DNA from: a virus
Taxonomy: Duplodnaviria; Caudoviricetes
DNA length: 64,000 nucleotides
IMG/VR virus record: IMGVR_UViG_3300030055_000003
Reading direction: 5' to 3' (one strand)
Below, in pieces: positions 7,920 through 63,998 of the stretch (positions are counted from its first letter, which is position 1; the number at the start of each line of letters is the position of its first letter). The notes below the pieces were generated by a model that was not told the origin of the DNA, made no database searches, and worked only from the letters and a program-made list of their open reading frames with translations. The position numbers and the translations under genes were made by a program.

Positions 7920-9225
7920 TTGTGAACATTATATGAACACAATTCCAATTTATAAGTCCATAAGTTATAACTCTTTAACAAGTCATACTAACTCTTATTG
8001 GATGTAAATGTACACCCTCTATTTCATCTACTTTAAAAGCTTCTGAAAATACCTTTTTAATTATATTATAAGCTCCATTAACATCTGAATTAATTAGTTT
8101 GTTTGTATTAGATTTAAATAAACCTCTTACTACACGTCTGCTTTTATTATATGTATCTTTACCTATTACTTCATTATCTAAAAAACTACAACCACTCGTA
8201 TAACTTTCGTTATTAGTTATTACTTTAATTCCTATATTAGAACACTTATATGTAATCATTTTTATTAATTTATCATATGGAATTGATATAAAATTCTGAT
8301 TAGCTGATTTGAATAAACCACTTTCCTGTTTCCAAGTTTTATTCAAACCAATTACTATGATCGTAATATTTAATCCTTCCGCATAAGTAACTATAGATTT
8401 ACTAGCATTATGTAAATAATAATTTATTTTATTATCTCTATCTTGTTGTAATTTATCTAACTTATTGCTCCAGTCCTTTTTATGTCGTTTCTTTAAATCC
8501 GACTGTAATTTAGCTTTCTTCTTATTGTAATATTGATTTATAGATTTGATAACTTTACCATTTATAATGATAGGTTGTACACCTACATTATTAACGCATG
8601 TAGCTAGGTTATCTACTCCTAAATCAATCCCTAATATTCTGTTATTGAATTCTTTAGGCTCTTGAACTTCAATCTCATAAACTATTTCTAATATGTAAGT
8701 TGAACCTTTTGGAATAATTCTAGTTTGTAATAGTTTATTTTTAACATTGGTTTTAAATAAGTTATTCAGTCCTTTTAGTGGTATAAAAGCAAAGTATAAA
8801 TATCCATCATATAAATGGGTTTGCATATTAGTCATTATAAAAATATGTCTACCATTTTTCTTTTTATATCTAGGTAATTTTGGTTTTCCAAGATATTTGT
8901 TTGGATGTTTCCAATAATCTTTTACACTTACTAAGAATGACTTCCAATCTTTACAAAGCAATCTCAATGTCATTTGTGCTGAATTTGAACCTATATCTTT
9001 GAAAGCCTCAGTCTTATTAAGTTCCTTTGACAACTCCACATATTGTAATATTGGACTACCTCTTACAAATAATTGTCTTTGAGTATAATTCGCTAGATTG
9101 TAAATGTTCTTAGCTTTAAAACAATACTCATCAAACAATTTCCATGCTTTGTGGTTTTTATCTATTATATGTCTTTCGACTCTTTGAGTTTTAATGTTAT
9201 CACCTCCTTTCAATCTTGTGTCATT
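7920..9225 (-). mobile_element. Lone-tnpB (IS1341-like) element; ends not resolved
   Basis: tnpB without tnpA; about 55 nt of 3' non-coding sequence ending near TTCAC is the candidate right end / omegaRNA region. Confidence 0.45.
7975..9213 (-). CDS. tnpB: IS200/IS605-family RNA-guided endonuclease TnpB
   Basis: RuvC-I LGIDLGVDNLA, IVIGLNKTWKQE, NESYTS, RuvC-III INSDVNGAYNI. Confidence 0.9.
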   Translation of the reverse strand: MKGGDNIKTQRVERHIIDKNHKAWKLFDEYCFKAKNIYNLANYTQRQLFVRGSPILQYVELSKELNKTEAFKDIGSNSAQMTLRLLCKDWKSFLVSVKDYWKHPNKYLGKPKLPRYKKKNGRHIFIMTNMQTHLYDGYLYFAFIPLKGLNNLFKTNVKNKLLQTRIIPKGSTYILEIVYEIEVQEPKEFNNRILGIDLGVDNLATCVNNVGVQPIIINGKVIKSINQYYNKKKAKLQSDLKKRHKKDWSNKLDKLQQDRDNKINYYLHNASKSIVTYAEGLNITIIVIGLNKTWKQESGLFKSANQNFISIPYDKLIKMITYKCSNIGIKVITNNESYTSGCSFLDNEVIGKDTYNKSRRVVRGLFKSNTNKLINSDVNGAYNIIKKVFSEAFKVDEIEGVHLHPIRVSMTC

Positions 9226-15690: not shown

Positions 15691-17157
15691 TTAACAAGCC
15701 TGTACTAATTCTTGATTATGTAATCCGTTTAATTTGTTTTTAATATCATATTTTATGTATTCTTCAGGGGTTAAATCTTTTATGTATTTAAATGTATATC
15801 CTTTATATGTTTTACATTTTCCTTTACAATTTCTTGAAATCATACTACTATTGAATTTTACCCCAAATAATGCTTCACCTTTATCAACTAAATCACTAGC
15901 AGATTTAAATACCATTCCATTTGTTAAACATATTGTTTCCTTACTATTTCCATCTCCTTTGTATGTACATAATCCTCTTTCTGTTCCTCTTGTTAAATAA
16001 CTTCTAATGGTTCTTGGAGACATTTTTATATTTTTTGCTATATCATTTACATTATGTATTCCTGATTCCCACATTGTCCAAGCCATCTTAACAAAATTTA
16101 ATAAAGCAAATTCTTCAATTTTGTTCCAATCTATATTATTTAAATCAAACAATTTATTTAATTTATTATTATTAACTATATTCTGTCTTATGTAGTTAAA
16201 TCTGTTTTCTATATTAAGATAATCACAATCAATTCTTATAACTTCAATTCCTTGTTTTTCAGCTAATTTATCCTTTTCATCATCTATAAATTGACTTTTT
16301 TCCTTGGTTTGTCCACTCATAGAATTATCATGATTGTGAAATCCACCGTCCATCTCTAATATATATTTCTTATTGTTTAATTCGAAATAAAAATCATATG
16401 ACTTAGGTTTAATCCATTCTGGAGAGTATTCTGATACAAAATCTATATTCAATTGTTCCAATAAATTGAAGGCAAACTTATTTGGATATTTCACACTATT
16501 CCCACATGAGCATCCTATAGAGTGATATTTATAAATGTTAGCTATAATTACTTTAGTACTTTTAACTCTACCACAAACAGGACATATTGGATAAATCTTT
16601 TTACTGCTTGATTTAGTATATTTCTTAGCCTCATCATATCCACCTTGAAAGTAAGGTATCATCCAAGGTGCAGTTGTAGGTATGTCTTTTATACCTTCTA
16701 CTACTATTTGATTTTCACAACATGCACAATTTTGTCCTTTTAATAAATTACTTTCTAATATCCATCCTTCATATCCATCTTTATTACAATGATATTTGTA
16801 ATATTTTTTATTTCCATATGTATTACATCTTTTTCTATATTCTCTATCTATAATTATTAAATCCCTTCTTTCACTTTTAAATGTTGTATCTATATTTACT
16901 TTAAAATCTGATGTGTATATACCTAGCAATTTTCCCAAGTGACATTTTATAAATGCAGAAGTTGTTATTTTAAAAGGTGGATTATTCAAATATTTAATAA
17001 ATATATATGGCATTTTGTACGATATAATTTTAACTTCAAAATTTATATTATCGTAAACTCCTTTTACATTATAATCTATACTCTTTTTCCAATTTATGTA
17101 ACCTTTATTATTTTCTTTTTCATACCCAGGTAAATCGTCTAAAAACATTTTTCTCAT
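15691..17157 (-). CDS. Free-standing Vsr/EDxHD-like (DUF559-type) endonuclease with zinc ribbons and NUMOD1-like tail
   Basis: CxxC repeats, YDFYF...ILEMDGGFH, IRIDC, ICLTNGMVFKSA. Confidence 0.65.
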   Translation of the reverse strand: MRKMFLDDLPGYEKENNKGYINWKKSIDYNVKGVYDNINFEVKIISYKMPYIFIKYLNNPPFKITTSAFIKCHLGKLLGIYTSDFKVNIDTTFKSERRDLIIIDREYRKRCNTYGNKKYYKYHCNKDGYEGWILESNLLKGQNCACCENQIVVEGIKDIPTTAPWMIPYFQGGYDEAKKYTKSSSKKIYPICPVCGRVKSTKVIIANIYKYHSIGCSCGNSVKYPNKFAFNLLEQLNIDFVSEYSPEWIKPKSYDFYFELNNKKYILEMDGGFHNHDNSMSGQTKEKSQFIDDEKDKLAEKQGIEVIRIDCDYLNIENRFNYIRQNIVNNNKLNKLFDLNNIDWNKIEEFALLNFVKMAWTMWESGIHNVNDIAKNIKMSPRTIRSYLTRGTERGLCTYKGDGNSKETICLTNGMVFKSASDLVDKGEALFGVKFNSSMISRNCKGKCKTYKGYTFKYIKDLTPEEYIKYDIKNKLNGLHNQELVQAC

Positions 17158-47968: not shown

Positions 47969-49261
47969 TTAACCCTCCTTACGTAATTCTGTTCCATCAA
48001 TGATTAAATTAACTTTTCTACAATCTAACTTATCTTCATTTCTATATTTTATATCATAATAATCATTTATATCCAATACAAAATTAGACAAATGCCATAT
48101 TCTAGTTACTCCATCTTTGTTAATTCTAGTAATTATAAATCCACTTATATTGATTAACCATTGATATTTTGACACTTTTGAAATATCTTCTTTATCTATA
48201 ATCACTTTTACTTCGCTATTATTTCTTTTAATGGATATATATGCAATATCACCACATTCAATAATTAAATTTTTATGAACCTTTGTATGTTTTGTTTCTT
48301 CATTATTAAGCAAATTTAGTTCTTTTTTAACCTTTTTCCTTCTGTCGTATTCAATCTCAACTGCACCTAACCAATTAAAAAATATATGCATTATTTTATA
48401 TATATTAGCTTTACATATTATTTCTTTTGGATACCATATTTTAAATTTTTCTTCTATGGTTACAAAATCTATATCATATTTCCCATTATATAATTCATAT
48501 AAATAATCCATTCTTGCAGAACTCTCTAAATCATATAGTGCTATTCTCTTTATATTTATAACCTTACACGCCTTGTAAATTCTAGAATTAAGTGTATCAT
48601 AATTAACAATTTCATGGTTTTTGCCTTTTATTATATGAAAAATGTTTTTGTTAAAATCAATATATTTCTTTTTATGGATTTCCTTTGCTAAATCCATCCA
48701 TTTTAAGAAATCAGAATCCACACTAATATGCAGAATTATTTCTTCTTCTTCATTAAATATAATCACTTCTTTATTTTTAAAATCTATATCTTTCCACTTT
48801 ATTTGCCTAGCATATATCATCTTCTGACCAGTAATACCGTATCTAGCTAATATTAAAGGTAAAACATTGTCTATGCCATTTGCTTCAAAAATTTTTCTAC
48901 ACAAATTAAAAAAATTATACTTAGAAATATACCAAGAATTATCTACTTTGTTTTTTCGTTTTAATTTAAATTCTTTGAGTTCTTTATGATAACTTTTAGA
49001 ATACCATTTTAAATAAAATTTAATAAAAGAATTAAATGTATATAATATACTGTCACTTAAGTCTGTGACTTTTTCATTACATTTTTTAATTTCATCTTCT
49101 CCAAAATCATATAAGTCTTTATTAGATTCATTTTCAATGTCAGCTATATAATTCATATACAAGTTCCAATTTGTAATTTCAGTAGATTTAGAGTAATTAG
49201 AACCTTTAAAAAATAAATATTTATTTACTTGAAATTGACTAGGTATAGGCATAAATTCCAA
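47969..49261 (-). CDS. MrpR/tyrosine-recombinase-like protein fused to a degenerate HNH-like domain
   Basis: E....KDLYDF...EI, LARYG, IKWKDIDF; C-terminal IIDKED...KYQW...WHLSNFVL...DKLDCRKVNL. Confidence 0.6.
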   Translation of the reverse strand: MEFMPIPSQFQVNKYLFFKGSNYSKSTEITNWNLYMNYIADIENESNKDLYDFGEDEIKKCNEKVTDLSDSILYTFNSFIKFYLKWYSKSYHKELKEFKLKRKNKVDNSWYISKYNFFNLCRKIFEANGIDNVLPLILARYGITGQKMIYARQIKWKDIDFKNKEVIIFNEEEEIILHISVDSDFLKWMDLAKEIHKKKYIDFNKNIFHIIKGKNHEIVNYDTLNSRIYKACKVINIKRIALYDLESSARMDYLYELYNGKYDIDFVTIEEKFKIWYPKEIICKANIYKIMHIFFNWLGAVEIEYDRRKKVKKELNLLNNEETKHTKVHKNLIIECGDIAYISIKRNNSEVKVIIDKEDISKVSKYQWLINISGFIITRINKDGVTRIWHLSNFVLDINDYYDIKYRNEDKLDCRKVNLIIDGTELRKEG

Positions 49262-57768: not shown

Positions 57769-59364
57769 TTAAATATGTATTGATCTATTATCATATTGAA
57801 AATGCAATCCCTTGTATTCCTGTCCTGTATTGCAAGCATGAGTTATTCCTTTTCTATAAAGTTTTATTCCAAATTCTTTTTCACTATTTGTATAACATTC
57901 ATTTATTGATGTAAATTCTTTATTATACTCTATATTTATAATTGATTTTTTACTAGAATCTCTTATAAATTTCTTATATTCTATTAATCCCTCATCTTCC
58001 GCTTGTTTTAAATAATCTCCTATTACTGTATTATCTAAATTAAGTAGTCTACCTATTTCAGAAGCATTATGTATTCCATTATTCCATAATTCAATTGCAT
58101 TAATTACATTTTTATCATGAATTTCTACTGCTGATATATAATTGCATAGATTATATTCTCTTGCCCTTTTTAAGTACCTCTTAACAGTTTTAAAATCTAT
58201 ATCCATTATTTTAGCAATCTCCATATGTCCTACTCCTTGATTATAATATTCACAAGCTTTAACTAAATACGAACTTAAAGATTCTTGTTCACATAAATTC
58301 CAATTAATTTTAGATATATCAAATAGTTTATTAATTTTTTCATTGTTTAATATATTATTTTTTATGTATTCAAATTTACTATACCTACAGTCAATTACTA
58401 TGTAATTTTCTTCTTTTATATTATTACTTAAAGCTAGTTTTTCTTTTAATTTATCATTTTCAGACTCTTCGTAATAACTTCTTCTAGAAAAACTACATTC
58501 TTCATAATGCTGAAGTCCATTTGTTTCTATCACAATGTTATTATGTTCTATATAAAAATCATATTCTTTGTTACCACATAAAGACTCTATTTCTGATAAT
58601 ACATTTTTAGACCAATCAAAATGTTTATGTCTTTTTATTTGTAAATTTAATTGTTTAAGTAGATTATATGTAAATTTTTCACCATAACTAAATCCGTCAG
58701 AACAAACTTGACAACAAATATCTTTTTCTCGATATAATGTAGATATTGCCATATTATCTCTTGGAACTTTACAAATCGGACAATGTAATAATCCTTTGTC
58801 TTGGCTTCCAAATGTTCTTGATTCTGCATCTTTAGTATTTTTAAAAAACTTAACCATCCACGGGTCTGTATCAGCGATTGTATTAATTCCTAAAACTGGT
58901 ACTTTATTAGAGCAACATCCACAACCTTGTTTCTTTTTCAAATTTCCCTCATTTATTCTTCCATTTTCCCAACCACATTCTAAGCATTCAAATATATATT
59001 CTTTTGTATTATCATTTTTATTTCTTGATTGTTCTTTAATCTTTATTTTTCCAGTAGATACTTCGATAATATCTCCTACATTGTAATAATGTTTACGTGT
59101 ATTTATTCCTAATAATTCACCTAATTGGCAATTCTGAAAATTACCTGTCCATATGTAAAATATATCTTTATTTAAATATTTTAAACCTAATATAGTTAGA
59201 CTATTTTCTCTTTTTACTTCTACAATTTCAACCCAACCTTCTTTATCATAATAAATAAATTTAACTTTATGACTTTTACATTCAAACCAATTTATTAAAC
59301 TATTGTTATTCTTTTTTCTAGGTAAATTTTCTAAAAATACTTTTCTAATTTTATTTTCTTTCAT
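57769..59364 (-). CDS. Free-standing Vsr/EDxHD-like endonuclease with zinc ribbons, HTH and NUMOD1-like tail; paralog of 15691-17157
   Basis: RKVFLENLP...INW, CxxC repeats, YDFYI...IETNGLQHY, IVIDC. Confidence 0.65.
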   Translation of the reverse strand: MKENKIRKVFLENLPRKKNNNSLINWFECKSHKVKFIYYDKEGWVEIVEVKRENSLTILGLKYLNKDIFYIWTGNFQNCQLGELLGINTRKHYYNVGDIIEVSTGKIKIKEQSRNKNDNTKEYIFECLECGWENGRINEGNLKKKQGCGCCSNKVPVLGINTIADTDPWMVKFFKNTKDAESRTFGSQDKGLLHCPICKVPRDNMAISTLYREKDICCQVCSDGFSYGEKFTYNLLKQLNLQIKRHKHFDWSKNVLSEIESLCGNKEYDFYIEHNNIVIETNGLQHYEECSFSRRSYYEESENDKLKEKLALSNNIKEENYIVIDCRYSKFEYIKNNILNNEKINKLFDISKINWNLCEQESLSSYLVKACEYYNQGVGHMEIAKIMDIDFKTVKRYLKRAREYNLCNYISAVEIHDKNVINAIELWNNGIHNASEIGRLLNLDNTVIGDYLKQAEDEGLIEYKKFIRDSSKKSIINIEYNKEFTSINECYTNSEKEFGIKLYRKGITHACNTGQEYKGLHFQYDNRSIHI

Positions 59365-59404: not shown

Positions 59405-59439
59405 GAACACAAACCAAGATTACTCCTAGTTTGTGTCTT
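59405..59439 (-). terminator. Terminator closing the MazF-peptide operon
   Basis: AGACACAAACUAGG-AGUAAU-CUUGGUUUGUGUUCU then UUGU; G-U pairs on the minus strand. Confidence 0.6.
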
Positions 59440-59469: not shown

Positions 59470-59574
59470 CTAGCCTCTACCAGAGCTAATTGCGTAACAA
59501 CTTATTTGACTAGCCATTGTAGCGATTGCTATTACTGCCATTAAAACAAATACTTTTACTTTTGATTTATTCAT
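59470..59574 (-). CDS. 34-aa secreted signalling-peptide precursor, AimP/Phr-like (absent from ORF track)
   Basis: SD AAGGAGGTGA; MNKSKVKVFVLMAVIAIATMASQISCYAISSGRG* with basic N-region, hydrophobic core and short polar tail. Confidence 0.75.
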   Translation of the reverse strand: MNKSKVKVFVLMAVIAIATMASQISCYAISSGRG

Positions 59575-59668: not shown

Positions 59669-60325
59669 TTAGCATGTACCATATTTTACTTTTATTTGTT
59701 GTTGCAATAACAATATTTTCTCACACAATATAATATTTATATTGTTTACCTCCTTTATTAATTCTTGAAAAGCCTCATCATATTGTGATGAATTGTTATG
59801 TATTAGCATGTCCTCTGCAACCACAAGGACATTACTAAAATTTTTTTCTAATAAACTTAAATTTAGTTTAGCAATAAGCTTTTCTAAATAACCTTCAACA
59901 TTATATGGATCACATCTTTTATAAGTTTCATAACAAAATTTATAAATTTTTATTAATTCTTCATTTGATAATTCTTTTTTATAGCAATGAACATAATTAT
60001 TTAAAGCTTTTGCATAGTCTTGTTTATGTCTTTGTGTGGTTAAATAATTAGGATAGTTCTCTAATTTTTCTTTAAGTTCTTTTGAATATAATCTAGCCGA
60101 GGTTATACTACCATTTAAATTTTGTTCAATACATTTTATTTCAGCATTTGTTAAATCACTTAATAATAATCTTATTTCATCTATATCTTTTAATGAATCT
60201 ATTTCTTGAAACCTCATTTTTTTTAGCATATTCCTAGCTTTTTCCACTCCATTTATCTCATTATCCCATTTATGATATACATCACTTTCTATCCTATCTG
60301 TTACGCTTCTTCTCTTATTTATCAT
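59669..60325 (-). CDS. Predicted all-helical (TPR-like) protein; candidate peptide receptor or antitoxin
   Basis: Amphipathic helices such as DYAKALNNYVHCY; lies between MazF and the peptide gene. Confidence 0.45.
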   Translation of the reverse strand: MINKRRSVTDRIESDVYHKWDNEINGVEKARNMLKKMRFQEIDSLKDIDEIRLLLSDLTNAEIKCIEQNLNGSITSARLYSKELKEKLENYPNYLTTQRHKQDYAKALNNYVHCYKKELSNEELIKIYKFCYETYKRCDPYNVEGYLEKLIAKLNLSLLEKNFSNVLVVAEDMLIHNNSSQYDEAFQELIKEVNNINIILCEKILLLQQQIKVKYGTC

Positions 60326-60350: not shown

Positions 60351-61154
60351 TTATATTGCTATCACTTCTTTTTCTTTCTCACATTGCATATAAAATTCCC
60401 TGTAATTTAGATTATTATCTTCACAATATATTTGTAATTCATATAATAAATCACTTCTTTCTTTTCGCAGAAGGTCGATTAAACTTTCTGTTTTGGTTTC
60501 TATAATTAATTCTTCACAATTCTTAATAGCATTTAATCGTTTGTTTATTTTATTTTGCATATATCTAGGCAGTTTTTCAAGTGGAGTCTTTTCTTGTAAT
60601 TCATTCATTGAAATATCTTTTGCTATTTTAATTTTCTTTTTTGTTATATCATCAAGTACTCCAACTCTGCTTTTAATTCTTCTTTTATCTAAAGTTCTTA
60701 CTTGCTCTAGCATAACTATTGAATCTTTAGGTAATCCAAATTGACCTGCTGAAATCTCGACATGCGTTGGAAGTTTACTTTTAGTTTGTTGGCTTGTAAC
60801 AAATGCTACTATAACAGTAGGAGAATACTTATTTCCAATTTCGTTCTGTATACAAATAGCGAATCTGTCATTATTTTGTTCGCTCCATCGCCCCCCATCT
60901 AAATTGACATATAATACCTCACCCCATTCAATATCCTTTAAATCTATATTATTATTTATTTTATTATCAGCAATATTTCTATTGCTATGTACATTGTTAA
61001 CTTCTATTTTTACTTGTTTAATTTGTTTATTAATATCTAGGTCTTTAACTTCTATCTTTGCTTCAATTAACTTATTATCATTCTTTAATTCCTCTTTATC
61101 CATTTCCAACTTAATCATCATTAGTTGTTCTCTTAACTCTAACATTACAACCAC
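60351..61154 (-). CDS. mazF: PemK/MazF-family endoribonuclease with N- and C-terminal extensions
   Basis: WGEVLYVNL...SEQ...R...IQNEIGNKYSPTVIVA.VT...KLPTHVEI...DSIVMLEQVRTLDK.R; likely ATG at 61145. Confidence 0.9.
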   Translation of the reverse strand: MVVMLELREQLMMIKLEMDKEELKNDNKLIEAKIEVKDLDINKQIKQVKIEVNNVHSNRNIADNKINNNIDLKDIEWGEVLYVNLDGGRWSEQNNDRFAICIQNEIGNKYSPTVIVAFVTSQQTKSKLPTHVEISAGQFGLPKDSIVMLEQVRTLDKRRIKSRVGVLDDITKKKIKIAKDISMNELQEKTPLEKLPRYMQNKINKRLNAIKNCEELIIETKTESLIDLLRKERSDLLYELQIYCEDNNLNYREFYMQCEKEKEVIAI

Positions 61155-61226
61155 CTTCCTCTAATTATTAAATCCCTTTAAAATTACTTTTTTATTATAT
61201 TAATTTGTTCCTGTTTCTATACTCTT

Positions 61227-61434
61227 ATGTTACATCTTATTTCCAAACTTGTCAATACTTTTTTTAAAATATTTATTTATTTCTTTTAATTTATTGACTT
61301 GTTCCTTATGAATATTATCCTACCACCATGTGGTAACTCTGTCAATACTTTTTTAAATTTATTTTTGTTCTTTTATTAATTTGTTTGTATCTCTTCTATG
61401 ACCTAATAATATACCCTACGGAATATAATGTCAA
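61227..61434 (-). promoter_or_regulatory. Three tandem sigma-A promoters
   Basis: TTGACA at 61250, 61340 and 61429, each 17 nt from TAACAT, TAGGAT or TATTAT and preceded by AAAAGT(A/G). Confidence 0.75.
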
Positions 61435-61525
61435 CACTTTTATCAAAATAATTTGTAGTTCTGTTAATTTATTTTAAACACTCCTTAAACATAGCAAATA
61501 AGCCAAATAAATAAACAAAAAGAAA

Positions 61526-61548
61526 AGGTTGGATGCTTGCTCCAACCT
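61526..61548 (-). terminator. Intrinsic terminator after the MrpR-like gene
   Basis: AGGTTGGA-GCAAGCA-TCCAACCT followed by TTTCTTTTTG. Confidence 0.8.
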
Positions 61549-62656
61549 AGCTCTCTATCTTTTCTGAATCAATACTTACTTCTAATTCAGATGATAATTC
61601 AATTTCTATCTCTTTATTTTCAACTTTAGAAATATTTTTATTAGTTCTCTTTTTTGTTTTTATATCTAATCCTGATATTAATTGAAAATCTCTTCGGACT
61701 CTTGAGTTTTTATTTACTGTAAACGTATTGTCATATATTTCATTTACATCATCTATATCAATATTTGTAACCATATCATTTTGTTTATATTTTTCAAATA
61801 ATAAATCAAATCTTCTATTCATATTTAAATTAGGTACACTTATTCTATTAATTCCATTACTTTTTGAAAGATTTCCTAGTTTATTATATACATCTTCGGC
61901 ACTCATATGTTGCCAATCAACTCTTTCAGTTGTTTTAATAATAAATCCTATATCTAAATAATTAATGTCTTCCATTTCTGTTTCTTTTTTATTAACTCTT
62001 TTCAAACTTGCTTTTGATTGTTTTCTTGGTTTAGTAAAACAATTTTTAGCTGAATCTATAAATCTTATAAATGAATTATCAATCGGCAATTCCAACAAAC
62101 CTTTTTCTTCTGAATAAACATTTAAAATTTTCTTTTCTCTATCTACATCTTCCCATTTTATAGTTCCCACATTATCTATAGGAACTCCATATCTTAACAA
62201 TGTCAACATTGCCCTGTCTACATCTGTACAATCTAATCCATATATAAATTCATTAAATTCTTGAAGTGTCTTGTACTGTTGTTTCTTAGCTTCATCACTA
62301 ACATCAAATAAACCAGTTGTATCAATTGAATCACATGGATTCCCTACATAGTTATAACCTTTTTTATATGCCCAACCTATATAATTTGATATTGTAGTAA
62401 ATAACATACTTTTTGTTGTCATTGAAGTTGTTGCAGTAGTTTTTATTGCTTGAATTATCTCTTGTTTAGTCCAATTATACAATTCTTTCTCTTTGTTTAA
62501 TTCTAAGAAATTGACTCTAGTATTTAACAAAATCCAGTAAGTTCTTTTTGTAGTATCTGAATATCTATCTTCGACTTCTTCTAACCAATCAGCTTTTCTT
62601 TTTAGATATTCATTTAAACCATCATATTTTACATCTTCATCTAAGAATTCATACAT
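61547..62656 (-). CDS. MrpR/YopR-like phage repressor (catalytically degenerate tyrosine-recombinase fold)
   Basis: E....KELYNW...EI, LLRYGV, IKWEDVD; no intact HxxR; follows a YopQ-like gene. Confidence 0.65.
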   Translation of the reverse strand: MYEFLDEDVKYDGLNEYLKRKADWLEEVEDRYSDTTKRTYWILLNTRVNFLELNKEKELYNWTKQEIIQAIKTTATTSMTTKSMLFTTISNYIGWAYKKGYNYVGNPCDSIDTTGLFDVSDEAKKQQYKTLQEFNEFIYGLDCTDVDRAMLTLLRYGVPIDNVGTIKWEDVDREKKILNVYSEEKGLLELPIDNSFIRFIDSAKNCFTKPRKQSKASLKRVNKKETEMEDINYLDIGFIIKTTERVDWQHMSAEDVYNKLGNLSKSNGINRISVPNLNMNRRFDLLFEKYKQNDMVTNIDIDDVNEIYDNTFTVNKNSRVRRDFQLISGLDIKTKKRTNKNISKVENKEIEIELSSELEVSIDSEKIES

Positions 62657-62657
62657 T

Positions 62658-63998
62658 CTACATTACCTCCTTAGCTATCTTTTCAAAATATTCATATATG
62701 TGTTTTACATTACAATCTTTTATATCTAATTTAAATTTTTTATTTAAATCTTCATTAATTTTTATTAGCTTATCAGCCACATCTCCAGCTAATAATCTTG
62801 AATTTTCATTGTTTTTTAATACGTTCGCTATTGCAAGATAACCAACAAACATATTAGGTTTTAATAAAAAGTTATGTTCTTTCATTACTTCTATATCGTC
62901 ACCAAAGTATTGAGACGATAAATATTCAATTAACATATCTATAATATTAGATATTTTTCTTGCTTCTCTTTCAGATGTTACGTCATTATCTATTTTTTCA
63001 ATATCCATAAACTCTACACTATCATTAAGAACACTTAGATAAGTTAATGATTTTTTTACTTTACATTCGCTAATAATATTTGCAACCTTATTTTTTAATG
63101 TTTTTGAATTAGTAGTTACATATTGTATAAATCTATTTTCTGGTGTATCTTTTAAAGTTTTTGCATAGGTTTTATCTGTTGAATTTTGTTCAAAAGTATC
63201 GGAAGTATATTGTTTTGCTTCACTTGGACTCATTAAAAAGAAAAATACACCTAATCCTTCATCTTCAACTTCTGTGTCTTCAAAATAAGCGTCCGCTAAA
63301 GCAGTAGATCTATGATTTCCATCATTTATTATCATTGGAGTATAATTAATTGAATTACTATCAAAATTTGGAGTAACTTCTAGTCTTCCAAACTTCTTCT
63401 TATACTCAGGAATAAATTTAACTTGTGGTTCTTTATTAGGCATATCTAAAACAGTAAAAGTTATAGCTGTTGGTTTTATATTGTGTTTTTTAAATCTTTG
63501 AATTAAAGAATTAATTCCATCTTTATTTACATTGATTTTTTCAATCTCTTCACCATTTGGAAGTTTTACAATTTTTCTAGCTCTTTGAATCCCTTCAAAA
63601 TTTCCCAACTTATTATTTTCTTTTATTTGCGCAAGTTGTTTAGCTTTGATGAAAAACCAATAAGCATTATTTCCAACCTTTTGACAATCTTCAAATACAA
63701 TTGTTTTTAATTCTTCTTGCTTTTCAGCTTCTTGATATACCTCATAATTCGTTAATACTGTACCTGTAAAATAATCTGTTGGATTTATATTAACTCCTAA
63801 ATTCTTTTCATTAGCTTTTGCAAAATTAAAAATTGATTTTGATAAAGCTATTAATACATTTTCATTTTTTATTTCATGTACTGTTAGCCCTTTATTGAAT
63901 AGTAATGCTGGAATATCTAAATTTAATCCTTTAGCACTAAATTCTTTATTGATATCTTGTTGTAATCTCATATTCGCTATTTCATTTTGAATAACCAA
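62658..63998 (-). CDS. DndB/ParB-like (DGQHR-type) protein, YopQ-like (start may lie outside window)
   Basis: IINDGNHRSTAL; AITF; context upstream of the MrpR-like gene. Confidence 0.6.
   Translation of the reverse strand: MVIQNEIANMRLQQDINKEFSAKGLNLDIPALLFNKGLTVHEIKNENVLIALSKSIFNFAKANEKNLGVNINPTDYFTGTVLTNYEVYQEAEKQEELKTIVFEDCQKVGNNAYWFFIKAKQLAQIKENNKLGNFEGIQRARKIVKLPNGEEIEKINVNKDGINSLIQRFKKHNIKPTAITFTVLDMPNKEPQVKFIPEYKKKFGRLEVTPNFDSNSINYTPMIINDGNHRSTALADAYFEDTEVEDEGLGVFFFLMSPSEAKQYTSDTFEQNSTDKTYAKTLKDTPENRFIQYVTTNSKTLKNKVANIISECKVKKSLTYLSVLNDSVEFMDIEKIDNDVTSEREARKISNIIDMLIEYLSSQYFGDDIEVMKEHNFLLKPNMFVGYLAIANVLKNNENSRLLAGDVADKLIKINEDLNKKFKLDIKDCNVKHIYEYFEKIAKEVM

Follow-up and report, generated by a model that had tools for sequence, protein, structure and literature searches.

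A phage-borne MazF with two terminal extensions, encoded beside a TPR-like protein and a signal-peptide ORF, as a candidate effector of an arbitrium-like switch

We describe a phage-borne gene, mazF-long, in a 64,000-nucleotide stretch of DNA (hereafter, the window) from the IMG/VR virus record IMGVR_UViG_3300030055_000003 (Duplodnaviria; Caudoviricetes). Judged by its sequence, the product, MazF-long, carries a genuine MazF/PemK domain, and this domain is flanked by conserved N-terminal and C-terminal extensions. The gene is followed by one for a tetratricopeptide repeat (TPR)-like protein and by an open reading frame (ORF) for a putative secreted pre-peptide, and the unit lies behind two genes that resemble SroE and SroF (MrpR). 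In phi3T, arbitrium acts via the host MazF, which promotes lysogeny; UACAU is frequent in the phage transcripts, and the sro operon escapes (PMC10769878; 10.1101/2023.04.27.537455; 10.1101/2025.11.27.690993). By analogy, MazF-long may provide this phage with its own version of an RNase that phi3T recruits from the host, with the host-MazF axis internalised, and we give this proposal an even chance of being right. We are just as evenly divided on whether MazF-long is the phage-borne MazF effector of an arbitrium-like peptide switch. No description was found in the literature of a MazF with these arms, of the C-terminal domain, or of a MazF-TPR-peptide operon. Phage MazF genes have already been catalogued (PHROG 1936; 54 phage records), among which the long form with both arms, TPR gene and peptide gene is a distinct subgroup.

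The features of MazF-long and of the two genes behind it are given below, with residues numbered from the ATG at 61145 (database entry P0002, the 264-residue form).

60351..61145, minus strand: mazF-long coding sequence, 264 codons plus stop; the GTG at 61154 falls within the ribosome-binding site
61095..61145, minus strand: N-terminal amphipathic helix, residues 1-17, consensus L-x-x-[ILMF]-[KR]-x-x-[MLI], with L8 invariant in alignment A1
60936..61094, minus strand: disordered Asn/Lys-rich linker of variable length, residues 18-70
60606..60935, minus strand: MazF/PemK endoribonuclease core, residues 71-180, with key residues R94, T117, E89, W87 and F95
60354..60605, minus strand: C-terminal extension, residues 181-264, with a KTPLEKLP linker and a two-helix hairpin (194-216, 220-243)
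59669..60325, minus strand: 218-residue TPR-like partner with ten helices and no helix-turn-helix (HTH), beginning 25 nt past the mazF stop
59470..59574, minus strand: 34-residue pre-peptide ORF with a signal peptide and an Ala-X-Ala-type site right before the C-terminal ISSGRG

An earlier note, made from the letters of the window alone, had placed the ORF at 60351..61154 on the minus strand. That ORF is present, and MazF-long is its product, although the start is probably the ATG at 61145 (264 residues) rather than the GTG at 61154 (267 residues). The 264-residue product is most likely because a strong Shine-Dalgarno sequence, AGAGGAAGGTGG, ends 5 nt ahead of this ATG and a related locus shows the same layout of ribosome-binding site and ATG.

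The MazF domain was identified by Pfam PemK_toxin (PF02452) with an E-value of 1.3e-24 (87 bits against a 23.1-bit cut-off); the match covers residues 78-176 of the 267-residue reading and profile positions 3-102 of 109. PHROG 1936, 'MazF-like growth inhibitor', matches MazF-long at 5.7e-21. Residues 73-180 align to the solved MazF structures from B. cereus, B. subtilis, B. anthracis and S. aureus with E-values of about 1e-25 and 44-47% identity, which bears out the earlier note's comparison of the core with the B. subtilis NdoA pattern, and chromosomally encoded MazF proteins of Clostridia share 50-60% identity with the core. Structure prediction, which the note had put forward as a check, was performed with AlphaFold2 (AF2) on 24 homologues. 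The predicted local distance difference test (pLDDT) of the core is 75-91, and in Foldseek the model matches 1ne8, 4mdx and 7bxy with E-values of about 1e-13, template-modelling (TM) scores of 0.85-0.88 on the target, and a root-mean-square deviation of about 2 Å over some 110 residues.

Alignment to the solved proteins places R94, T117 and E89 opposite Arg25, Thr48 and Glu20 of B. cereus and B. subtilis MazF, so that the catalytic Arg and Thr are retained, as had been noticed earlier. In alignment A1, T117 does not vary and E89 hardly does; R94 is invariant in A3. The equivalents of Arg25, Thr48 and Glu20 are needed for activity in MazF of B. subtilis, B. cereus and D. audaxviator (PMC7354611, PMC8634880). 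Between the window and the related locus L003, both of the subclade with Trp at the Gly18 position, the core has a dN of 0.074 and a dS of 1.27; the resulting dN/dS of about 0.06, a measure usable for this pair alone with synonymous sites saturated elsewhere, indicates strong purifying selection on the core and no decay. Two positions of the substrate loop are changed in MazF-long, Gly18 to Trp (W87) and Pro26 to Phe (F95), the second being the replacement of RP by RF that the note had already pointed out. Trp or Tyr at Gly18 is confined to MazF-long and its three closest relatives, and most other family members retain Gly. In B. subtilis MazF, Gly18 and Pro26 contact the A and U of UACAU, Gly18 via its backbone, and among MazF-Da mutants G18A abolished and P26A weakened activity (PMC8634880). 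In our proposal, MazF-long would be a catalytically competent MazF-family endoribonuclease, with a presumed RNase activity and a presumed UACAU specificity.

A sister clade of MazF-long (L172:3221-3967, P0021 and P0023) has Leu in place of Glu20, DSN in place of IQN, and EQDTPIDV in place of EQxRTxDK, with Arg25, Thr48, N arm, C arm, partner and peptide all retained. From these sequences, either the core of this clade would have been swapped, or its specificity or activity altered.

The roughly 70 N-terminal and 80 C-terminal extra residues reported in the earlier note come to 70 (residues 1-70) and 84 (residues 181-264). About 25 proteins of 240-286 residues have both extensions, and the 24 homologues of alignment A1 preserve the reading frame across many in-frame length changes, from which it follows that both extensions are translated. 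Neither extension matches any Pfam family, and an ESM Atlas feature search with the extensions gave no usable match, its shape matches being generic helical hairpins. In the AF2 model, the N arm consists of a helix at residues 3-17 of low confidence (pLDDT ~50), which is not docked with confidence in the monomer, and of a disordered linker with a pLDDT below 50 over residues 16-65. The hairpin of the C arm is predicted with a pLDDT of about 90; this arm bears the motif ER..L..L..YC..N.LNY..YY, and its C-terminal end is a hydrophobic tail.

Among 1.84 billion representatives, a search with a C-arm profile returned 103 clusters. The MazF core precedes the arm in 76 of the 96 proteins checked, one of which has two C-arm copies behind MazF; the remainder are truncated fragments (e.g. 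P0164), stand-alone forms of 70-97 residues, and two-copy and three-copy forms without MazF. The phage protein P0123 (L009:3001-3666) comprises three tandem C-arm copies and no MazF, and its gene has a resolvase gene on one side and, on the other, two genes downstream, a terminase-like one (with a faint Pfam match). P0143 and P0161 represent other arrangements of the C domain (two copies alone; MazF plus two copies). The surroundings of the stand-alone proteins are mixed: L008 has one behind a broken MazF, and L007 and L009 have no MazF nearby. In a broader group of MazF proteins of about 190-230 residues, the C arm is present and the N arm is absent, for example on C. botulinum plasmids of about 200 kb. 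Taken at the sequence level, the C arm is an independent, uncharacterised domain and the N arm is specific to one clade. On one such phage-like plasmid of about 200 kb (L001, C. botulinum plasmid pNPD1_1, 15111-16203), a 188-residue MazF with C arm lies between a ParB gene and a TPR-annotated gene; no peptide gene was seen at this locus.

The TPR-like partner was modelled by AF2 from 23 homologues with a pLDDT of 93.5 and a predicted TM score of 0.86, as ten helices. VIA-align matched it to TPR domains with Z of 13.3-9.8, including those of kinesin light chain, PlcR, NprR and phi105 Rap; Foldseek returned weak TPR rows only, and a BFVD search returned generic repeat proteins only. The partner belongs to no Pfam, PHROG, NCBIfam or PADLOC family and shows no sequence homology to a known receptor family. 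No HTH family matches it, and the repeat fold occupies all 218 residues, leaving no room for an HTH. In 10 of the 10 loci with a neighbourhood examined, the member of this 23-homologue family adjoins a MazF-long gene. Prediction of a complex of two copies of MazF-long with the partner ended in 'no answer' (score 0.01, mark 0.32), which counts neither for nor against binding. Comparison of the partner family by hhalign with the proteins that follow other MazF forms (L001, L095, L102, L005) was not significant (best E 0.004, 8% probability), and the TPR matches that Pfam gave for the following proteins of L001 and L161 were no better than sub-threshold. Among about 170 MazF ORFs in the loci analysed, no fusion of MazF to a TPR domain was present, and P0080 (327 residues) is not one either.

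The product of the 34-residue ORF begins with basic residues, continues with a hydrophobic core and has ISSGRG after ...CYA, a layout assigned as a signal peptide by eye rather than by a predictor. Peptide-gene counterparts occur in all nine of the nine related loci that have the partner family. Elsewhere the peptides end in GPGVRG, TGGPRG, GSIGRG or TTGSGRG (xxxxRG), each directly preceded by an Ala-X-Ala-type site. A second set has SSGGGWG or SSGNGWG at the C-terminus, and there is one longer peptide.

The absence of a MazE, likewise claimed in the earlier note, holds. The 390-nt gap upstream of mazF-long contains no plausible ORF, PF04014 (MazE_antitoxin) and PF01402 (RHH_1) have no match anywhere in the incomplete 141-kb record, and no MazE is called beside the homologues in related loci. 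By its sequence context, mazF-long lacks the adjoining, co-transcribed MazE of a canonical type II mazEF.

The combination of mazF-long, a partner of 205-222 residues and a signal-peptide ORF was found in 10 loci, representing 7 distinct phages. The related loci compare as follows.

Window, L003/L004, L006, L172-174: MrpR-like gene upstream; N and C arms; partner; peptide ORF
L175: MrpR-like gene upstream; C arm, 209 residues, with no value for the N-arm comparison; distant 215-residue partner; peptide ORF
L090, L091, L093: upstream genes not examined; N and C arms; partner; peptide ORF
L005: MrpR-like gene upstream; N and C arms with canonical core; no partner; no peptide ORF
L092: upstream genes not examined; N and C arms with canonical core; no partner; no peptide ORF
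L095, L148, L161: MrpR-like gene upstream; C arm only; another protein of about 170-200 residues; no peptide ORF seen in L095 (L148 and L161 unscreened)

The family is a mosaic. Between the window and L003, identity is 86% in the core, 38% in the N arm, 35% in the C arm and 38% in the partner, and the pair with the most similar partners (L006 and L091, 48%) also has the most similar C arms (61%). In Mantel tests by exhaustive permutation on a small sample of eight loci (seven for the N arm), partner divergence correlated with that of the C arm (r 0.65, p 0.0035) and of the N arm (r 0.46, p 0.044), but not with that of the core (r 0.23, p 0.16). The partner travels or co-evolves with the arms, not with the RNase core. 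The suggestion in the earlier note that the extra residues form a receptor-docking module gains indirect support from the TPR-like neighbour with its secreted-peptide gene and from this tracking of the C arm.

The distribution of UACAU was examined under the assumption that MazF-long has the specificity of its closest characterised relatives, which the Trp at Gly18 makes uncertain. On the coding strand, UACAU occurs 308 times against 247 expected (z +5.6), and 21% of the phage ORFs have at least 4 sites per kb; the same measure is 17.5% for SPbeta and phi3T and 3.5% for the host chromosome (10.1101/2023.04.27.537455). Self-avoidance of UACAU by the phage was considered and rejected on account of this over-representation. 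Among the 33 ORFs that reach 900 nt, UACAU density is lowest in the SroF-like gene (0 in 1,110 nt), with the SroE-like gene third from the bottom; the chance that both fall in the bottom four is about 0.011. In phi3T, MazF breaks down the majority of the phage's mRNAs, apart from the operon that contains sroF (10.1101/2025.11.27.690993), and the low UACAU content of the SroE/SroF-like genes parallels this reported sparing.

The regulatory features and the upstream genes are listed below.

61200..61473, minus strand: promoter region with three TTGACA-17-nt promoters, -35 boxes at 61434, 61345 and 61255
59406..59437, minus strand: 14-pair terminator-like hairpin that ends the mazF-TPR-peptide transcription unit
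61526..61548, minus strand: terminator-like hairpin closing the repressor operon
61547..62656, minus strand: MrpR/SroF (YopR)-like protein, a degenerate tyrosine-recombinase fold, encoded directly upstream of the mazF unit
62658..63998, minus strand: DGQHR/DndB-like protein, SroE (YopQ)-like, the first of the two upstream repressor-type genes

The order is thus terminator, three promoters, mazF-long, TPR gene, peptide gene and terminator, and the triple-promoter layout is likewise found upstream of the L172 homologue. The SroE-like protein matches Pfam DndB at 2.5e-06 and NCBIfam DGQHR at 1.2e-07, each under its cut-off; in BLASTP it is 22% identical to phi3T_96 (SroE/YopQ) over 382 collinear residues (E 4e-05), with DGNHR opposite DGYHR, and a gene of this kind is found at the corresponding place in 10 of 14 related loci that were tabulated. 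The SroF-like protein matches Pfam MrpR_N_CB at 7.3e-06 (27.0 bits, exactly at the 27-bit cut-off) and, in BLASTP, phi3T_97 (SroF/YopR) with an E-value of 0.004 over 145 residues. An MrpR_N_CB-matching gene is immediately upstream in 12 related loci, including those of the short forms L095, L148 and L161; of the positional counterparts, those in L095 and L148 exceed the cut-off and that in L161 falls short of it (20.2 bits). These similarities are weak but consistent, and point to an SPbeta-type repression module (SroE/YopQ plus SroF/MrpR). A tblastn search of 50,697 phage records with the SroE-like and SroF-like proteins gave no match.

The window has 68 copies of the motif AAYAAATTAA where 9.3 would be expected. 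Of these, 67 are on the coding (minus) strand, at least some are intergenic, and four copies (61200, 61286, 61376, 61464) are interleaved with the mazF promoters. In SPbeta, MrpR represses the aimR promoter through SPBRE sites (PMC10516654). By analogy, AAYAAATTAA may be an SPBRE-like operator or a junction motif, and its position among the promoters suggests an operon that would be repressed in the lysogen and fire on infection, as expected of an arbitrium operon.

Other observations concern the surroundings of the unit. In L003, L004 and L005, a divergent small HTH_3/XRE gene lies upstream of the SroE/SroF-like pair, with a small ORF in between; phi3T has a divergent yopS-like gene (phi3T_98), but downstream of phi3T_97. 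Two paralogous homing-endonuclease-like genes with HTH regions, encoding about 490-530 residues (PHROG 4538/9084), are located at 57769-59364(-) and 15691-17157(-). The former directly follows the terminator of the mazF operon and has 9 UACAU sites, the densest in the neighbourhood. Elsewhere in the window, 47969-49261(-) and 7975-9213(-) hold a second gene of integrase type (PHROG 5830) and one resembling a transposase (PHROG 506).

The source record comprises 140,944 bp with a CheckV completeness of 57%, and a protein identical to MazF-long is found on a 283,734-bp contig. The window has a GC content of 25%, almost every gene is on one strand, and its genes match phage RecJ-like, DnaB-like and homing-endonuclease families; together with the IMG/VR assignment, these phage-family neighbours agree with the earlier description of the gene as phage-encoded. 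The DNA originates from peat metagenomes, with 24 DNA holders and 0 RNA holders listed among the sequencing runs. Megablast of the mazF locus against phage records gave no match. A scan of 185,579 species genomes with MazF returned nearly exclusively canonical chromosomal MazF, and consequently no host was identified. In the whole 141-kb record, GCAGC and GCTGC both have 0 copies, with about 14 each expected under a Markov model, which looks like avoidance of a GCWGC-type restriction site.

We hypothesize the following mechanism. The three promoters would drive mazF-long, the HTH-less TPR protein and the secreted pre-peptide as a unit behind the SroE/SroF(MrpR)-type genes, at the place where the decision circuitry of SPbeta-like phages is found. 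The TPR protein would hold or release MazF-long through its extensions, chiefly the C hairpin, depending on whether it has bound an imported hexapeptide. Active MazF-long would then cut the UACAU-rich phage transcripts and spare the UACAU-poor repressor mRNAs, and this cutting would push the infection to lysogeny, as the host MazF does for phi3T. The direction of the switch, in which the free receptor would restrain MazF and the peptide release it, is modelled on phi3T. In addition, the enzyme may be damped in cis by the flexibly tethered N helix, by the C hairpin or by the two together, which would explain how the gene is tolerated in relatives without a TPR partner. A more specific version, which we hold only tentatively and think rather doubtful, is a self-contained arbitrium-MazF circuit in which the TPR protein clamps the C hairpin or hydrophobic tail and ISSGRG competes for the same groove and frees the RNase, which would destroy UACAU-rich lytic messages, leave the UACAU-poor SroE/SroF mRNAs intact and so lead to lysogeny; the peptide signal would then be wired straight to an RNase, with no transcription factor between.

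Several points weigh against an arbitrium-like role for MazF-long. RNA cleavage, partner binding to the extensions and peptide sensing are all inferred. Trp at Gly18 together with Phe at Pro26 may give an activity or a specificity other than UACAU, and if W87 and F95 shift the specificity, the UACAU argument would be void; moreover, the sparing of the sro-like genes comes from a post hoc test (p ~0.01-0.03). Glu20 is lost to Leu in L172, P0021 and P0023, though the extensions and partner stay. The TPR match is generic, as helical repeats easily reach Z of 10-13. The correlation of partner and C arm could stem from physical linkage of adjoining DNA and not from contact. Linkage could account for the C-arm result, since this arm abuts the partner gene; it is a poorer explanation for the N arm, which is separated from that gene by the core. 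Finally, L005 and L092 keep MazF-long with no partner, peptide gene or any small ORF after it, and the TPR protein is therefore no obligatory antidote; since some relatives have no partner, cis-inhibition, tolerance of a highly specific RNase or cross-neutralisation by a host MazE must contribute.

The same two loci bear on an explanation that we regard as unlikely, namely that MazF-long and the downstream TPR-like protein are a non-canonical toxin-antitoxin pair in reverse order, with the peptide gene unrelated or accessory, which would serve to stabilise a prophage or phage-plasmid or to exclude other phages. L005 and L092 retain the toxin without its supposed antitoxin. In keeping with such a pair, short C-arm MazF proteins are followed by proteins of about 170-200 residues (L095, L102, L148, L161), with no peptide ORF seen in L095; on the C. 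botulinum plasmids of about 200 kb, the gene comes after ParB and before a TPR-annotated gene; and divergence of the partner follows that of the C extension. However, the peptide gene is present wherever the partner family occurs, inside the same promoter-terminator unit, and the constant site beside MrpR-type genes indicates a lysis-lysogeny region rather than a partition or defence island.

Alternatively, MazF-long could be a self-contained, autoinhibited toxin (a fused toxin-antitoxin), in line with the self-inhibitory module suggested in the earlier note, an account that we consider very unlikely to be the whole one. In it, the MazF dimer would have its RNA groove filled in cis by the N helix or the C hairpin, much as MazE fills it in trans with its C-terminal helix, until a protease, a rival phage protein or stress triggered release. 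The lack of MazE, the intact relatives without any partner (cis-inhibition is even needed for L005 and L092), and a short amphipathic helix tethered by some 50 disordered residues, as one would expect a cis plug to be built, are all consistent with this. MazE, AimX and YosL each bind MazF by one short helix (PMC10769878), and natural MazE-MazF fusions, with a ribbon-helix-helix domain plus PemK, are among the matches (P0037 and P0079). Yet mimicry of MazE by the N helix was set aside as weak: the M..GY.EM motif of MazE and AimX is matched at hydrophobic positions only, and its Glu is not conserved. The AF2 monomer shows no confident docking of the helix (pLDDT ~50), and a C domain that occurs alone or in tandem without MazF looks more like a module for interactions in general than like a plug made for this one enzyme.

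Least probable is an early host-takeover or anti-defence factor, either an RNase for host shutoff, expressed from the three strong promoters, or a weakened MazF look-alike that titrates host MazE or interferes with host MazF dimers, for although three near-consensus promoters, a core 50-60% identical to chromosomal Clostridia MazF, the substrate-loop changes (Trp at Gly18 here, Leu at Glu20 in L172), the lysogeny-promoting binding of MazE by phi3T_93 (PMC10769878) and the non-cognate MazE-MazF cross-neutralisation reported for UACAU-type MazF (PMC10893535) would suit it, an RNase of that specificity would cut the phage's own messages on a UACAU-enriched coding strand, purifying selection acts strongly on the core and its catalytic residues, and such a role leaves the conservation of the TPR and peptide genes unexplained. 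The formation of heterodimers with host MazF or the titration of host MazE, both raised in the earlier note, is possible by analogy with the MazE-binding phi3T_93 (PMC10769878).

The operon context, the Gly18-to-Trp change and the recognition of the C extension as an independent domain go beyond the earlier note. Work of 2024 established that the arbitrium system of phi3T chooses between lysis and lysogeny through control of the host's MazF. Judging by the present gene family, large phages of AT-rich anaerobes may have taken the RNase on board, adding docking arms and, in one operon, a minimal peptide receptor and its signal, beside repressor genes of a similar kind. If the arbitrium-like role of MazF-long is correct, the unit would offer a compact three-protein system for reconstituting peptide sensing, toxin control and the lysogeny decision. 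The uncharacterised helical domain, with about 100 clusters, would mark regulated MazF toxins, and a class of communication systems would have been overlooked by detectors based on receptor length and HTH. If it is wrong, a clear non-canonical, antitoxin-less MazF architecture still stands.

MazF-long shares with the MazF/EndoA (NdoA)-MazE/EndoAI systems (4mdx, 4me7, 7bxy, 4mzm) the fold, the pattern over about 110 residues and the equivalents of Arg25, Thr48 and Glu20. It differs in having 264 residues rather than about 116, in the added tethered N helix and C hairpin domain, in Trp at Gly18 and Phe at Pro26, in the lack of an upstream MazE, and in being phage-borne beside repressor genes. 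The likeness to arbitrium (AimR-AimP-AimX, phi3T/SPbeta) lies in a TPR-type protein followed by a short signal-peptide gene, in SroE/SroF-type neighbours, in the MazF link and in UACAU-rich phage transcripts (PMC10769878; 10.1101/2023.04.27.537455). Here, however, MazF is phage-encoded and the first gene of the unit, and the order relative to the sro-like genes is reversed. The putative receptor has 218 residues and no HTH, and therefore cannot be an antiterminator or transcription factor, and the partner has no detectable sequence homology to AimR. In their C-terminal 6-7 residues (xxxxRG), the pre-peptides described here resemble the AimP peptides SAIRGA and GMPRGA. An AimX-like gene was not noticed, in the course of an analysis that included no systematic search for one.

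Unlike AimR, PlcR, PrgX and NprR, the partner has no N-terminal HTH, and unlike Rap it has no N-terminal effector bundle. Rap-Phr systems, including phi105 Rap (PDB 8rte), are similar in that the receptor is an HTH-less TPR protein, with a structural match to the partner at Z 9.8, and in that Rap binds a target protein and is switched by an imported peptide encoded just downstream. Rap proteins have about 380 residues with an extra N-terminal helical bundle and target response regulators, not an RNase, and the partner has no detected sequence similarity to them. CapRel(SJ46) is a prophage-encoded fused toxin-antitoxin with a C-terminal helical regulatory domain and no separate antitoxin. MazF-long resembles it in joining a toxin domain to a C-terminal helical domain without a separate antitoxin, and differs from it in the toxin fold and in the conserved separate partner gene. 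Among phages more broadly, MazF domains (PHROG 1936 and others) are common, with one present in 54 phage records and in many IMG/VR contigs of 100-250 kb; most of these other phage MazF proteins cover the core alone (query residues 72-181), whereas MazF-long adds an arm on either side.

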